Shown here one piece after another: positions 38,856 through 44,741 of a stretch of DNA of 64,000 nt (position 1 is the first letter of the stretch; every line of letters starts with the position of its first letter). Where the stretch lies: NCBI GenBank assembly GCA_963745835.1, contig CAVUZH010000005.1:128001-192000 (forward strand), given 5' to 3'. A program made the position numbers and the translations under genes. A model generated the notes under the pieces. It did no database searches, was not told the origin of the DNA, and saw only the letters and a list, made by a program, of their open reading frames with translations. Source of the stretch: an uncultured delta proteobacterium. Its GTDB lineage: Bacteria > Desulfobacterota > Binatia > UBA9968.

Positions 38856-39098
38856 TCAGGCTTTGCTGGGGCCCGAGTTCTCAGTATCCGGCCAATAATT
38901 GAGGGCGTGCAGAGCGTCGCGGATCGGCTGTAGCAGTTTGGGTTGCGGGCCGGGCATGCCTTCTTCCTCCGCGACTTCCATCAACGTCGCTTCCTGTTCC
39001 CATCGCCCGAAGGATTTCAATTTTTTGCTGGCGCGACAGTTCTTGATTTGAAACCACTTCTTGAGGGCTCTTAAAAACGGCTGCGGGATTCAGCTTTG
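38856..39098 (-). pseudogene. Fragment of conserved hypothetical protein, 5' end lost at the adjacent repeat
   Basis: NPAAVFKSPQEVVSNQELSRQQKIEILR, then RWEQEATLMEVAEEEGM in a shifted frame. Confidence 0.55.
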
Positions 39099-39103
39099 CG
39101 GGT

Positions 39104-39545
39104 GGGAACCAGCGCCGGGTCGGACCGGAGTAAACTGTTTGATTAAACAAACGAACATGCAATAAATAGCGTCGTTTAAGGGCTTAGAGGCAGCTTTTTG
39201 ATGCCGAAAAGGGGTTTCTAAGGAAGACGATGCCACGCGCCAACCGCTATTTCCTGCCCGGATACGTCTGGCACATCACCACCAACATTGAAGCCAGTTC
39301 CAAAACGTTCCAACCGTTCAATCGCTTCGCTCCGTTCAAGACGTTCAAAGCCAGAACTCGGAGGCGAAGAAGCGCTTTGGACTTTGTGTGCTCGATTACA
39401 TTGTGACATCCAATCACATTCATCTTCTGGTCAAAGACACTGGAGAAAACGTCATCGCTGAGAGCATGCAGCTCATTAGAATACCGAAGCCCGTTCCAAT
39501 CGTTCCAGCCGTTCAACCGCTTCGCTCCGTTCAAGACGTTTCGGA
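39104..39545 (+). mobile_element. Remnant of a second RAYT/Y1 transposase element, interrupted by 9-mer repeat arms; contains empty IS110 target (core TCG 39120-39122)
   Basis: MPRANRYFLPGYVWHIT from 39230; EAKKRFGLCVLDYIVTSNHIHLLV (HUH); homologous to 40766-40785 plus 42343-42570. Confidence 0.8.
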
Positions 39546-39702
39546 CTACGACTGCCAGTATTGAGCGGATTCGCGGATCTCCATCAATGGCTGGAGCAGA
39601 AGCAGGTCCTCACGTCGCTCGACCTCAAACACGTACTGAGTTAGGTTTGAAAAACACACGAATGACTGCTGACAATCACAAAATAACGAAAGGAGCACGC
39701 GG

Positions 39703-40731
39703 ATGAATTATCTACGTAATGCATCGAAGAAGAGGAATTGGATCGCTGCATATCTATTCTCAGCATTGCTTCTCTCACCTTCACTCTATGCAGCTTCGGA
39801 TTCGAAGATCATTGAGGCGGCGAAAAAAGATGGCGAGTTGATGTTGTGGACCAGTAGCGATATGCGGACGGCAAGTCGCTTGGTGGAGCGTTTTGAGCAA
39901 AGATATCCGTTTGTAAAAGTTAAAATATTCAGAACCGGAACGGGTGCCCTCCATAACAAGGTCACGACAGAGGCGTTGGCGGGAAAGCACAACTGGGACG
40001 TGATGAACACGTTGATGCCCACGCGCGACTTAATCGAAAGAAAGTTGCTCGCTCCATACAGCTCTCCGGAAGCCGGAATGCTGTTGGACCAGAGCCTTCG
40101 AGACCCAACGGGATATTGGACCGCGATTTATGCGATCCCCTTTGTGTTGGGGTACAACACAAACCTGGTTAAACCTGCGGAGGCGCCTAAAAGTTATGGC
40201 GAACTTTTAGGCCCTCAGTGGAAAGGAAGCAAAATATCCATTGATCAAGATGGTTATGAGCTCCTCCAGGGTCTGATCCTTTCGTGGGGAAAAGAAAAAG
40301 CGGTGGACTATCTGAAGAAGCTTGCATCCCAGCAACCCGTCTCAAGACGTGGGAATTCGCTCCGTGTGCAGCTTGTTACGGCTGGCGAGCATCCGTTGCT
40401 CATCTCTATGGCGAGCCCCATTCAACTGGTTCGCCGCGATGGCGCACCAATCAATTGGATTCCCCTGGAACCCGTTCCGGTGAGCTTCCACGCGATAGCC
40501 CTGGCGGAACATGCTTCACATCCGAATGCCGCAAAGCTGTATATCGATTTTGTTCTTTCACCCGACGGCCAAGAAACTCTTCGCAGTGTCCAGAGAATAC
40601 CAGTGCGTAAGGACGTCGAAGCAGACCCACCGACCTTGTTCAAAGGATATAACCGGATTATGCTCCAGCCCATGAAAACCGAGGAATTTAACGAGATCTT
40701 GAGCCTTTACAACAACATATTTGGTCGTTGA
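39703..40731 (+). CDS. ABC transporter extracellular solute-binding protein
   Basis: Signal peptide; AAKKDGEL; SHPNAAKLYIDFVLS. Confidence 0.88.
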   Translation: MNYLRNASKKRNWIAAYLFSALLLSPSLYAASDSKIIEAAKKDGELMLWTSSDMRTASRLVERFEQRYPFVKVKIFRTGTGALHNKVTTEALAGKHNWDVMNTLMPTRDLIERKLLAPYSSPEAGMLLDQSLRDPTGYWTAIYAIPFVLGYNTNLVKPAEAPKSYGELLGPQWKGSKISIDQDGYELLQGLILSWGKEKAVDYLKKLASQQPVSRRGNSLRVQLVTAGEHPLLISMASPIQLVRRDGAPINWIPLEPVPVSFHAIALAEHASHPNAAKLYIDFVLSPDGQETLRSVQRIPVRKDVEADPPTLFKGYNRIMLQPMKTEEFNEILSLYNNIFGR

Positions 40732-40805
40732 GCGCGCGCTGAAAACAGCCAAGTAATCACTCGCTGTGGAACCGGCGCCGGGTCGCCCATTAGCAGGCAG
40801 GTCAA

Positions 40806-41243
40806 GAGGGCACAGACGTTCCTGTGAGAATTTTTTCTTATTCCCTTTTTCAACCCTCGCGGAATGTGTGATCGCTGATTGACGCGCCCCTGTTTTCAAT
40901 CAGTTGGTGTCGGATCGCATAGGTCCGCACCAGTCACCCATCAGGTTCAAGGCTTTGGAGCTGTCCCTACTGGGCAGTGATCTCCCGCCCCTGGCAATTT
41001 TCATTGCCCCAGAAAACTATCGGTACCACGCCGCGTCCAAGGTTATAGGATCACAGATCCTGTGGCTCTCCGTGTTCGGGGGCCAACCCTATTGTGGCTC
41101 ACGGCGTGGGCGTACCATCGAATCACAGCACCGCCGAGTTGTCGATATGTAAAGGGACGGGATAGCCGCCAATCGGACCATGTGGTTCTAAGCCAACCCG
41201 GTAATAGGCTCACTATCCCATCCCAACCGTTAAATGGATCTTG
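40806..41243 (-). ncRNA. Candidate bridge/seek RNA in the 3' non-coding end of the IS1111-type element
   Basis: About 440-nt non-coding region; stem 41154-41165/41213-41224 encloses CCGGGTTGG and GGTCCGA, matching both strands of the target. Confidence 0.7.
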
Positions 41244-42261
41244 CTAAGCAAAGGCCTTCGTGAGATCAAACGCCACCTGATCTTTGATAATGTAGTAACA
41301 AGCCCGGCAGAGCTTGTGCGCCACTGCTTTGATCCCCACAATCGCATTGCTCTTGGATTTCTTTTTCTGATAGAAGCTTTTGATCTTCGAATTAAACCGG
41401 ATCGCGAAGTTGGCCGCCTCCACAAAACGCCCAGGCCAAATACTTATTGCCGTTCTTGGTGTTGCCAGTTCCTTTACGCTTGCCGTTGCTGATCTTCTGG
41501 CTCCCCACACACCGGCAGTACGACGCGTAATTTCCGACACTGGCAAATCTCTCGATCTCTCCGGTCTCGAGCATGATAGTCAGCGCCAGGATGGGCCCGA
41601 TTCCGGGTACCGTCTTTAGAAACCTGAACTGAGAGCGCAGCTTGACTCGGTCTTGGACGGTTTTTTCCAGGATCTCGATCTGGGCATCAGCGCTGTTCAT
41701 CACCGCCAGATTGGCTTTGAGCGCTAGGACGAGATCCGGGTTGGGCAACACTCCATCGACGCGTTGGATATTGAGCGCTTTGATGTACTGGGCGCTGATC
41801 GTGTTCCCCGTGGTGCGGCTTATCAGACTCTGGATACTCAGAAGATTCGCCGTCCTTTGATGCACGAGCTGGCCCCGCTTACGCAACAAATCACGCAGCG
41901 CTCGCTCCTGCTTCGGATAGATGTAGCCCTCGGGTAAGACCCCGAGCCGGAGCAGATGGGCCAGCCACCGCGCATCGCTGTGGTCGTCGGTATACTTCAG
42001 CCCACTGTACTGCTGGATGGCCGCCGTGTTGGCGAGATGAAGTCGGTAGCCCTTCTCCATCAGTCCATCAACCAGCCAGTACCAGTTATAGGTAGACTCC
42101 ACCACGATGTCCTGAAGCGATCTCCGATAGGTTGACAGTTCCTGTGTGATCAACGAAAGATCGTTGGGCAAACGCTTCTGATACACCACTTGATCTTGCT
42201 CATTGATCACCACCGTCACGTTGTTGGTGGAATGCAAATCGATTGCTCCGTACAATTTCAT
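41244..42261 (-). CDS. IS110 family DEDD recombinase/transposase (frameshift near 41425)
   Basis: GAIDLH, VVEST, KYTDDHSDA; TVPGIG; KNGNKYL; tail AVAHKLCRACYY in ORF 41244..41546. Confidence 0.92.
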
Positions 42262-42342
42262 CCCGGTTCCTCCTTTGAGTGGGTGTGGGGTTGTTTCCCC
42301 GCACGTTACGGCCTCTCGAAGGACCCTGCTAGATGATTATCG

Positions 42343-42570
42343 GACCGGAGTAAACTGTGATTAAACAAACGAAGAGGCAATAAATAGCGTCGTTTACGGA
42401 CTTAGAGGCAGCTTTTTGATGCCGAAAAGCAAGTTTCTAAGGAAGACGCGATGCCACGCGCCAACCGCTATTTCCTGCCCGGATACGTCTGGCACATCAC
42501 CACCAACGCTGAAGCAAGTTCAATCGTTCAAACCGTTCAACCGCTTCGCTCCGTTCAAAACGTTTTACAA
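42343..42570 (+). repeat. Second copy of the RAYT-2 left-end remnant, ending in a 9-mer repeat arm
   Basis: Near-identical to 39123-39345, including ATGCCACGCGCCAACCGCTATTTC. Confidence 0.85.
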
Positions 42571-42630
42571 GCGAATACCAAAGCATTGTGATGTGATCGA
42601 AGCAGACAACATATCGCGAAGCCGCCTTTT

Positions 42631-43203
42631 CTACTGAAAGACGATCATATCCGTGCGGCTCAGGGTTGAGGCGTTGGCCTTCAGCGGTTCGTTGGTGGCG
42701 TTGGCGCTATTCTGATTCAGTATTTGGAATTGGCCGATCGCCACTTCGTAGTCCGTTGCGGCTAAGCTGGCATCTGTCGGTACAACGACCGTGTATCCCC
42801 GCAGTGTCGCTCCGACCGATGTATAGACCACCGAGCCGCTGACCTTCCAGCCGGTAAGAATCAGCGTCGTGATCCCCTTGGCCTTCAGCGTTTCGTCGAG
42901 ATCCGTGTTGTAGAATCGGTCCTGAGCATACGACTTGACCACAGGGTCGCCCGGAGCAGGAGCGACCTCCGGCATCCACTTCGAGCTCTCCGGCTCCCGG
43001 GTAGAGTACAGGACGAACACGCCGGCTTTTCGTGCCCGCGCCAGCAGCGAGGCGAGGGCCGGCACCATGACCCCGGTGCAATTCGGCTGGTTTTTGCAAA
43101 TACGATCGATCATGTCGAATACCAACAACGCCGTGGTCGCGGGTTGAAGGACAACTCTCACCGGGTCGGGAAGGGCCGGCATTTGCAGTGTCAGCATTGA
43201 CAT
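42631..43203 (-). CDS. Isochorismatase/cysteine hydrolase family protein
   Basis: TALLVFDM; FYNTDLDETLKAKGITTLILTG; RGYTVVVPTDA. Confidence 0.85.
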   Translation of the reverse strand: MSMLTLQMPALPDPVRVVLQPATTALLVFDMIDRICKNQPNCTGVMVPALASLLARARKAGVFVLYSTREPESSKWMPEVAPAPGDPVVKSYAQDRFYNTDLDETLKAKGITTLILTGWKVSGSVVYTSVGATLRGYTVVVPTDASLAATDYEVAIGQFQILNQNSANATNEPLKANASTLSRTDMIVFQ

Positions 43204-43229
43204 GGGGTTCCTCCGTAGAGCGCGAGCGT

Positions 43230-43383
43230 TAGCAGGCTGTTGAAAAAGGCCCACCTGCTTCGTTGCGCTCGATCGCTTCGCTCCAACGTATCAGTAAATA
43301 TGCCTCCGCTCATCGATTTCTCGCGCGCCTCGCATCTGGACCTTTTTGAACAGCCTGAAGTCAGGTTTTTCAACAAACGGCTC
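43230..43383. mobile_element. MITE family B, copy 2
   Basis: tagcaggctgttgaaaaa ... tttttcaacaaacggct; inverted homolog of 15563-15716. Confidence 0.7.
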
Positions 43384-43584
43384 TTCGAGTATCCGCCGAG
43401 CTCTGTATTGTAAATTTGAAACTTTATCTCTTGCGAAAGAAATATCGCCGGTGGGGAAAGGTGTCAACAGAATGTGGTGTTTGCTTGCCGTACAACTTGC
43501 AGCGACCTTTGCGGTAGATTCCCGTAATGACCAATGAAGCCGCCCGAAGCGGCTCAGGCTCGACAAGCGCCAATTGAGTTTTGA

Positions 43585-43939
43585 GGGACGTTGTTGACTA
43601 GCTGGAATAACTCTCGACGATGCCCGTCGGACTGGAAAATTTCCCCGGATTGCGGGAGGTGGTCGGCGGTTTGCTAAACCCTCATCTTGGTTTTTTTCCA
43701 AGGTAAATATCGAAGAACGAATGCAATCGTTGCTCGTTTGTAAACCTTCTCAATGAAGGAAGGAAGATGCGTCTCACCGTGAGATGAACGGGTAATCGAT
43801 TCAGCCCACGCACACGTAAGCACGAACACGACAGCTGGCCGGTCAGTCGTTTGGAACCATTGGAACTTTTGGAACCATTGGAACGAATGAATTCTCAGAC
43901 CGGCGACTTCAAGGTCGCAAGCTTTTCTGTCAGCTTCAT
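43585..43939 (+). repeat. About 355-bp direct repeat, copy 1: orphan RAYT-type end + intergenic DNA + 9-mer arm + 3' tip of an acetolactate synthase gene
   Basis: Starts GGGACGTTGTTGACTAGCTGG; near-identical to 46059-46420. Confidence 0.85.
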
Positions 43940-44142
43940 TGAGGACGCGTATCCGGTGTCAGCCTTGCTTAAGTTGCCTAACTAGATTCACTTCATACTA
44001 TTGTTTCGAGTTACTCATGATAGGCAAGTCCGATGGTAGACACGGACTCTCCGGCTTTCGACATCTCGCCCTGGATGGCGGGACGGCTCAACCGAGCTGA
44101 TGAATTTCTGTTAGCTTAACCGTGGCGGAACCGACATTCAAA

Positions 44143-44427
44143 TCAGGCGATTCTTCGCACCTTGATCTTGCCGGCATGTTTTTCGGCCTCGGCGAGATCA
44201 TATTCCATCTGGAGCCCAAGCCACACGTCCGGTTTGCTGCCGAAAGCTTTCGATAAGCGAATGGACATTTCCGGGGAAACACCGGCCTTGCCATTTATAA
44301 CATTGTTAAGAGCTTGTCGGGTCACACCCAGTCGTGCCGCCGCTTCTGTTATAGTCAGACCCAACGGTTCTATGCATTCCTGGCGGATAATCCTACCCGG
44401 ATGCGGTGGGTTTTTCATGCGTCCCAT
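44143..44427 (-). CDS. higA: HigA family antitoxin (HTH)
   Basis: PPHPG, LGVTRQAL and WLGLQMEYDL motifs. Confidence 0.92.
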   Translation of the reverse strand: MGRMKNPPHPGRIIRQECIEPLGLTITEAAARLGVTRQALNNVINGKAGVSPEMSIRLSKAFGSKPDVWLGLQMEYDLAEAEKHAGKIKVRRIA

Positions 44428-44462
44428 CTCTTCTCCTTTTGCCTATCCGGCCAAGGACAGGC

Positions 44463-44741
44463 TTAATGATAGTCGACCAAATTGACATCATACGCATCGC
44501 CATTCTTGAATCGAAACACTATGCGCCAGTTCGCCCGCACGATAACACTCCAGAACCCCTTCAGTTCTCCTCTCAGCGGATGCAGTCCAAAGCCGGGGAG
44601 ACTCATGTCTTCAGGTCCTTGGGCGCGGTTCAAAACAGCGAGAATGTTTTCAATCTTCGGAATGTGATCGGCGCTAACACCTCTGGTTTCGCCATCTTCA
44701 AATAGGCGTTTCAAGCCTTTGTGCTTGAAAGTTCGAATCAC
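44463..44741 (-). CDS. higB: HigB (RelE-like) toxin
   Basis: MIRTFKHKGLKRLF; LHPLRG; NWRIVFRF; VDYH; upstream of antitoxin. Confidence 0.92.
   Translation of the reverse strand: MIRTFKHKGLKRLFEDGETRGVSADHIPKIENILAVLNRAQGPEDMSLPGFGLHPLRGELKGFWSVIVRANWRIVFRFKNGDAYDVNLVDYH

Follow-up and report, generated by a model that had tools for sequence, protein, structure and literature searches.

An IS1111-type insertion sequence from soil whose 3' non-coding end very probably encodes a target-specifying seekRNA

The window (the whole stretch of 64,000 nucleotides that was analyzed) carries on its minus strand an IS110-family element of the IS1111 type, 1557 bp long (42339-40783; Table 1). Because the 3-nt core CGA stands at each IS junction, and once in the empty site described below, the ends of the IS are uncertain by up to 3 nt. 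A second genomic copy (G000:C15, hereafter the C15 twin) was 99.87% identical to the window copy over 1574 aligned positions, and the alignment of both copies revealed two differences only. The T run at 41427-41424 is one T longer in the window copy than in the twin, and the window copy has one C fewer at 41201-41200, just 5' of the first of the two guides. The transposase gene of the window copy is frameshifted because of the extra T, and this copy, as it reads, would be unable to make a full-length transposase. The C15 twin encodes an uninterrupted transposase of 338 amino acids, within the range of the IS1111 group (330 to 350 amino acids), and could provide the enzyme in trans for the window copy. 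Pfam searches identified the N-terminal, RuvC-like DEDD domain (PF01548; E = 1.4e-14) and the C-terminal domain (PF02371; E = 6.8e-13), and the intact twin scored 178 bits against the NCBIfam model NF033542, 'IS110 family RNA-guided transposase', for which the cut-off is 140. The stretch of the twin that would correspond to the IS1111 motif GL-P----S(t)G is CRCVGSQKISNGK, in which an N stands between S and G. A first-pass annotation of the window had proposed a natural, perhaps reprogrammable triple of recombinase, guide, and target; its guide and target were recovered, the recombinase of the window copy is broken, and the working triple is more likely to be that of the intact twin.

The element has 78 nt of non-coding DNA 5' of the start codon and 461 nt 3' of the stop codon, so that the longer non-coding region lies 3' of the transposase gene, a trait of the IS1111 group. 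The first-pass annotation was right in calling this end long but set its limit at 40806 rather than at 40783. The subterminal inverted repeats TAGCAGG and CCTGCTA are 7 bp long and perfect and begin 9 nt from each end; for the IS1111 group, the criterion is subterminal repeats of 7 to 17 bp. Moreover, the repeats covary between the two ends, with 5.31 of 8 positions complementary compared to 3.62 (standard deviation [sd], 0.19) after shuffling (42 unique end pairs). At the right end, the TTGAC hexamer and CTAATGGG.GA are conserved across the family, and in most loci a C precedes the hexamer.

Read in the sense of the IS, the target consists of GGTCCGA followed, across the insertion point, by CCCGGCGC. 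Both genomic copies occupy the same 16-bp site, and their identity starts at GGTCCGA on the left and stops at CCCGGCGCC on the right. A 16-mer at 39126-39111, which differs from the abutted flanks by one mismatch, is an uninterrupted paralogue of the insertion site; the left flanks of this 16-mer and of the IS share 92% identity. Among nine close copies (seven relatives with 91 to 95% protein identity and the two genomic copies, at different sites), GGTCCGA abuts the invariant left end TAATCATC in all nine, and the sequence further out differs. Since the same GGTCCGA is shared by copies whose outer flanks diverge, the guide specifies precisely this left half. The right halves of these copies vary (CCCGG, ACCGT, CCCGA, and CCCAA), and so does the 5' guide. 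Across the family, the left junction reads as a variable stretch ending in YGA and followed by TAATCATCTAG, and the right junction reads TTGAC-N-CTAATGGGYGA followed by CCC. Insertion at one specific sequence and in one orientation, as is characteristic of IS110/IS1111 elements, is borne out by the 16-bp site common to the two genomic copies and by the left half common to all nine close copies. A genome search for the 16-mer showed no enrichment, with eight matches at up to two mismatches compared to seven for a reversed control.

Table 1. Features of the insertion sequence, its non-coding end, and its target in window coordinates
Feature	Coordinates	Strand	Basis or remarks
Uninterrupted paralogous target	39111..39126	-	15/16 identical to abutted flanks; 16-mer search and left-flank alignment
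Right target half CCCGGCGCC	40774..40782	-	Flank; common to both genomic copies, continues the empty site
Whole insertion sequence	40783..42339	-	Identity with second copy, divergence of flanks outside, and empty paralogous site
Right end: -35-like TTGACC (40805-40800), subterminal repeat CCTGCTA (40797-40791), terminal extension ATGGGCGA (40790-40783)	40783..40805	-	
Module 3, predicted multiloop closed by GUUUU / AAAAC (41017-41013 / 40896-40892)	40892..41017	-	Three inner helices and an invariant single strand
CUGAUGGGUGA, copy of right end and core, candidate left-donor guide	40934..40944	-	Contains the first-pass string ATGGGTGA (40941-40934)
Module 2, second internal loop, of module 1 design	41022..41116	-	9/11 predicted pairs compensatory, 48 sequences
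Module 2 parts, in order: outer stem; GAGCC; GGGUUGG; inner hairpin; CCAC; conserved GGAUCUGUGA; UUGGAC	Stem 41109-41101 / 41034-41026; GGGUUGG 41089-41083; GGAUCUGUGA 41060-41051		
Module 1, target-binding loop	41154..41224	-	RNAalifold consensus of 50 sequences; single-sequence fold
Module 1 outer stem	41224-41213 / 41165-41154		
Module 1 CC/GG clamp	41207-41206 / 41170-41169		
Module 1 inner hairpin UGG...CCA	41195-41193 / 41185-41183	-	Predicted
3' guide (U)GGUCCGA, pairs with target bottom strand	41173..41180	-	Covaries in family; top signals at 41176-41180
5' guide, pairs with target top strand	41193..41201	-	Covaries with right flank in family
Transposase remainder, other frame	41244..41427	-	ORF and comparison with twin; TAG stop at 41246-41244
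Transposase, first frame, 289 codons	41392..42261	-	DEDD_Tnp_IS110 and Transposase_20 domains
Left end: 8-nt terminal extension TAATCATC, then subterminal inverted repeat TAGCAGG	42325..42339	-	Near-invariant in family; repeat covaries with right end
Left target half and core, GGTCCGA	42340..42346	-	Flank; same 7 nt at left end of 9/9 close copies

The first-pass annotation had singled out four strings in the non-coding end, and all of them were found on the minus strand where it had placed them. Directly after the stop codon, some 80 nt form an internal loop with an enclosing stem of 12 bp, in which GGGATGGGATAG pairs with CTATCCCGTCCC (one pair being G.U). On its 5' strand, the loop holds the 9-mer CCGGGTTGG at 41201-41193, the RNA form of which, CCGGGUUGG, is complementary, with one G.U pair, to the target top strand CCGACCCGG across the insertion point, from the core into the right half. 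Written as CCGGG-UU-GG, this 5' guide reads positions 1 to 5 of the right half with CCGGG, the GA of the core with UU, and CC with GG. On the 3' strand of the loop, GGTCCGA at 41179-41173 is the top strand of the left half and core (UGGUC-CGA in the RNA), and with G.U pairs allowed and the preceding U included, this match grows to 8 nt, UGGUCCGA. The 9-mer ends in UGG, which hardly varies in the family and may be structural; a small inner hairpin between UGG and CCA is predicted. Another string in the loop, GCCUAUUA, would pair over 8 nt with the right end; it is absent from close relatives, and we attribute the pairing to chance. The 81-nt loop folded at -36.3 kcal/mol (z = -3.33), a value reached by 1 of 200 shuffles. 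In the RNAalifold consensus, 12 of 17 pairs were kept through changes on both sides; this alignment contained 50 of the 53 anchored sequences, three having been dropped for mis-parsed coordinates.

Matches between so short a loop and its target might arise by chance, in which case the stem-loop would be a 3' structure of the mRNA, such as a stabilizer or a terminator. Its position directly 3' of the stop codon would suit such a role, and single matches of this length proved to be common when the non-coding region was resampled 1000 times with a first-order Markov model and G.U pairs were allowed: a top-strand match of at least 9 nt across the core was obtained in 163 resamples, and a bottom-strand match of at least 10 nt was obtained in 183. 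However, both matches occurred together in 26 resamples, and in the right order and within 40 nt of each other in only 4. Moreover, the stem is not followed by a T run, and a search for terminator-like sites revealed none there on the sense strand. The guide matches in this one sequence were therefore suggestive, and it was the comparison across the family that made the guide reading solid.

Two collection scans yielded 80 genome loci and 80 metagenome loci with 54 to 95% protein identity. When 162 sequences were parsed with regular expressions, the loop was found in 125, the left junction in 122, and the right junction in 68; those left out (37 without a loop, 40 without a left junction, and 94 without a right junction) were lost to contig ends or to differing downstream sequence. 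The first-pass annotation had proposed covariation of loop and target among homologous ISs as a check, and in these 160 homologous loci both guides did covary with the flanks. For the 3' guide, 102 parsed loci gave 96 unique pairs with 51 distinct 6-mers. The fraction of letters that were pairable, that is, identical to the left flank or G.U compatible, was 0.98, 0.91, 0.81, 0.89, and 0.69 at positions -1 to -5 and 0.34 at -6, and the mean contiguous run was 4.14 compared to 2.19 (sd, 0.13; maximum, 2.61) in 2000 shuffles. Mismatches at -1 to -7 comprised 65 G.U-compatible transitions (C or A in the flank and U or G in the guide) versus 31 in the reverse direction (binomial P = 7e-4). In an unbiased scan that compared all alignment columns with all flank positions (11730 tests), left-target positions -1, -5, -3, and -2 paired with columns 41176, 41180, 41178, and 41177 within the top nine (z = 5.0 to 3.2), and position -4 with column 41179 ranked 16th (z = 2.8), all five being in exact register.

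The 5' guide covaried with the right flank as well, with a mean run of 4.65 compared to 3.48 (sd, 0.12; maximum, 3.95) after shuffling (66 unique pairs). Four related loci that have been retargeted (L155, L163, L164, and L174) have the right half CTTTTCC and the guide GGAAAAG, and runs of 9 nt were found in L039, L054, and L159. Beyond the conserved GGG(G), this guide pairs irregularly, and 23 of the 66 pairs end at 4 nt (GGGG/CCCC). Among close relatives, its fit was partial, with runs of 5, 5, 4, 0, 4, and 3; the 0 belongs to L103, in the register used, and the 3 belongs to L024. Together, the comparisons give putative pairing rules of about 5 + 3 nt on the left and 4 to 9 nt on the right, with G.U pairs tolerated. 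Loop letters that follow the flanks of other genomes, in 96 and 66 unique pairs, would not be explained by a terminator, and we consider chance matching in an mRNA hairpin to be extremely improbable.

Very probably, then, what we describe here is the 3' non-coding end of an IS110 element of the IS1111 type, and this end encodes a seekRNA (bridge RNA). By its layout, which has the features given below for published IS1111 seekRNAs, the element belongs to the mechanism described in 2024. By analogy with the published IS1111 and IS621 systems, the RNA would be transcribed from a promoter formed when the excised element circularizes, the right end contributing the -35-like TTGACC and the left end beginning with TAAT. 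The seekRNA would bind the DEDD transposase, and its two guides would pair with opposite strands of GGTCCGA/CCCGG, directing insertion after CGA in one orientation. The other 380 nt or so contain two more conserved modules, a paralogous loop (module 2) and a predicted multiloop in which the right end is present as an invariant copy (module 3).

No sigma-70-like promoter was found inside the element, which agrees with ISEc11, for which the published account gives no internal promoter (PMC11187229). The hexamer TTGACC, placed 17 nt from the right terminus and conserved across the family in its TTGAC core, would fit the junction promoter described for IS1111 elements in that account. Parts of the element were present in 20 of the 24 listed runs, all labeled as soil or rhizosphere, and 14 DNA runs contained at least half of its sampled words. 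Contigs from RNA libraries (four libraries from four studies, at least 88% likeness) cover the transposase gene and, above all, 40814-41137, and one contig of 439 nt spans 40833-41225. These contigs come from relatives, do not show strand or ends, and may reflect carried-over DNA, and they give a weak hint that the non-coding end is transcribed. At 88% likeness, X15 and X16 left the loop 1 bin (41192-41245) uncovered, as expected for the variable loop of relatives.

With transcription of this end only weakly indicated, the guide might also be the element's own single-stranded DNA rather than an RNA, in the manner of IS200/IS605-type elements. Neither the covariation nor its G.T-compatible asymmetry separates RNA from DNA of the same strand. 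On the other hand, in four IS1111 members the non-coding RNA was reported to copurify with the transposase, to be RNase sensitive, and to be essential when supplied in trans (PMC11187229). Here, the enzyme matches the NCBIfam model of an RNA-guided transposase, and the compensatory changes in its conserved stems agree with a transcript that folds. A DNA guide is accordingly very unlikely in our estimation.

The published seekRNAs closest in layout are those of the IS1111-family elements ISEc11, ISPa11, ISKpn4, and ISPst6 (Siddiquee et al. 2024, PMC11187229). As described for these, the non-coding region lies 3' of a DEDD transposase of about 340 amino acids, the inverted repeats are subterminal, a stem-loop of about 80 nt directly follows the stop codon, the top-strand match stands 5' of the bottom-strand match with an overlap at the insertion point, and relatives have been naturally retargeted. 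The proposal of the first-pass annotation that the loop sequences are target guides thus agrees with the order published for IS1111 seekRNAs (PMC11187229) as well as with the covariation in the family. The targets of ISKpn4, ISPst6, and ISPa25 end in TTGA before the insertion point (published Table 1, via PMC13604230), compared to YTGA here. The end studied here, with its two further conserved modules, is 461 nt long, compared to 145 to 172 nt for the long forms of seekRNA in the published account, and its RNA, unlike the seekRNAs of PMC11187229, is predicted from DNA. The non-coding region had no detectable nucleotide similarity to complete Escherichia coli genomes and only two short matches to plasmids, and in these searches no sequence link to ISEc11 was found. 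No Rfam family matched window positions 39000-44000 at E values up to 1.

The element shares with IS621 and ISCro4 of the IS110 group (Durrant et al. 2024, PMC11208160; PDB 8wt6 and 9t56) an RNA-guided DEDD recombinase, internal loops that read both target strands around a short core, and a second loop of similar design. In contrast to that system as described, the RNA lies downstream and not upstream of the gene, the guides stand in the opposite order, the element has longer subterminal repeats, and its second loop has no donor match. The protein is remotely similar to ISCro4 (E = 8e-9) and IS621 (E = 9e-7), mainly in the C-terminal part, and the search of a PDB copy revealed no closer chain. 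According to the work on IS621, the RNA of IS1111 members lies in the right end, often with the donor-binding letters in a multiloop, and bridge RNAs were predicted in 93% of IS1111 elements (PMC11208160). The nearest named relative that was found, a plasmid copy at 51.6% identity (matches H11 and H14), is labeled 'ISGsu4 family', and its likeness to ISGsu4 is that of an NCBI annotation label only.

The first-pass annotation had raised the possibility of extra domains, and the 461-nt end does contain two further conserved, structured modules; among relatives with 55 to 94% protein identity, the non-coding end is conserved in blocks. Module 2 repeats the design of module 1. Its GGG(G) tracks lineage-specific changes of loop 1 (identity of the last 4 nt, 2.92 versus 2.42 ± 0.08), and its position 41056 tracks position -1 of the left flank (92% versus 61% expected; z = 4.4). 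The letters of module 2 follow the core-proximal part of the target only and not the distal, site-specific letters, and the run of its 5' strand against the right flank was not significant (2.82 versus 2.58; sd, 0.14). In module 3, 14 of 27 predicted pairs were compensatory (53 sequences), and GATGGGTGACTG was identical in 53 of the 53 sequences of its alignment (A2).

The single strand CUGAUGGGUGA of module 3 matches the right end CTAATGGGCGA over 11 nt with two G.U-compatible differences; in the bottom-strand sense, no other segment matched the joined ends as well. An exact GATGGGTGAC, which is the consensus right end of the family, was present in 86 of 140 homologous loci (those with at least 420 nt downstream). 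The donor candidate AUGGGUGA of the first-pass annotation lies inside this 11-nt match; its likeness to the donor was upheld, and it is stronger than the label 'weaker' had implied. Most likely, the right-end copy in module 3 is the guide for the right-end half of the donor, and of the donor's two halves, this one has the stronger support. A scan of the non-coding region against both strands of the joined ends brought out the right-end copy only and revealed no left-end guide at a consistent place, and where loci differed in their left ends, matches of at least 7 nt did not recur at a consistent place. For a donor-binding loop that would read both halves of the joined ends, there is thus a candidate for the right-end half only. 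Two strings were considered for the left end and rejected: CGAUAGUUUUCU (41022-41011), which resembles the core and left end, did not covary across left-end variants, and UGAUUG (40901-40896) occupies a position that is variable in the family, whereas the left end is invariant.

Module 1 alone might therefore be the guide, with modules 2 and 3 conserved as signals in the right-end DNA, such as sites for protein binding or pieces of a promoter, or for the regulation of transposase expression. Such a division would agree with the report that the 82-nt short seekRNA of ISEc11 is enough for transposition (PMC11187229), with the lack of a left-end guide in our scans, and with the nonsignificant match of the second loop to the right flank. 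It would not account as readily for the compensatory pairs in module 2 (9 of 11) and module 3 (14 of 27), which point to RNA structure, for the invariant single strand that equals the right end and core over 11 nt, or for the repetition of the module 1 design in module 2. We regard a guide limited to module 1 as a real possibility, though one that falls short of probable, and favor modules that are part of the RNA. A further step would be a tripartite guide RNA with a site-specific loop 1, a loop 2 concerned with core-proximal letters (left -1, the core, and right +1 to +4), and a multiloop with the right-end guide, a speculation that we consider doubtful. If the guide RNA of this widespread soil clade were tripartite, loop 2 could be a dedicated core loop or a handshake-type loop that holds the exchanged strands, or it could read the right junction during excision, and the logic of end recognition would be unlike both the two-loop IS621 model and the 82-nt minimal seekRNA.

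The locus and its relatives provide, from soil bacteria, the set of an intact enzyme (in the twin), a guide, an occupied site, and an empty site of an RNA-guided recombinase, together with about 100 relatives whose readable guides and targets yield pairing rules. The contribution is one of breadth and not of a new principle; the point of wider interest is the function of modules 2 and 3.

Fragments of related non-coding ends, 82 to 100% identical, also occur alone in genome G000 (C22:96724-97206, C5:21658-21873, C13:691428-691566, C13:679744-679765, and C15:34442-34495). The C22 fragment has kept the target loop with the same 3' guide and a different 5' guide and stands beside an inverted left-end remnant; both it and the C5 fragment break at IS position 1334. 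Solo copies are known from the IS110-family element ISPpu9 of Pseudomonas putida, which lies in a repeated sequence and has a small-RNA gene (Ssr9) 3' of its transposase gene, with extra solo copies of that small-RNA gene in the genome (PMC12288879). Unlike those copies as described, the fragments observed here look like decayed remnants. Six relatives (L110, L055, L059, L158, L171, and L084) have two tandem or nearby right termini (CTAATGGGYGA...), an arrangement that repeated insertion or abortive excision might have produced. In a 93%-identical relative (L105:3517 onward), unrelated sequence replaces the non-coding end from the middle of module 3.

The IS appears to be directed to one end of a different repeated element. 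A repeated gene family, most of it decayed, has products that begin with MPRANR(Y/H)FLPG, and the target of the IS lies about 105 to 125 nt 5' of its start codon; members of the family were seen in the window (39111-39564 and 42340-42640) and elsewhere in G000 (C20:75333, C22:281509, C22:96789, and C2:12782). A longer copy (L183:184-543) weakly matches Y1_Tnp (IS200-like; E = 0.0014; 19.2 bits, under the cut-off of 23), and the short ORF pieces that adjoin the target had no match in Pfam or NCBIfam. Short repeats of the GAACGG / TTGAACGG type interrupt the Y1-like gene remnants (window 39290-39400 and 42500-42560) and give ORF translations such as ERLERSEAIERLERF on one strand. The C15 twin and several relatives stand in a different shared context, with ACATAGCNT 5' of the site.

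Three more IS110-family transposase genes, only 26% identical to the one described here, are present in the genome (G000 C13:575857-576690, C22:70369-71169, and C19:502668-503459), and one of them has two in-frame TAG codons. Near the element, two small adjacent ORFs of 94 and 92 amino acids (window 44143-44741, minus strand) may encode a HigA-type antitoxin and HigB/RelE-type toxin pair.
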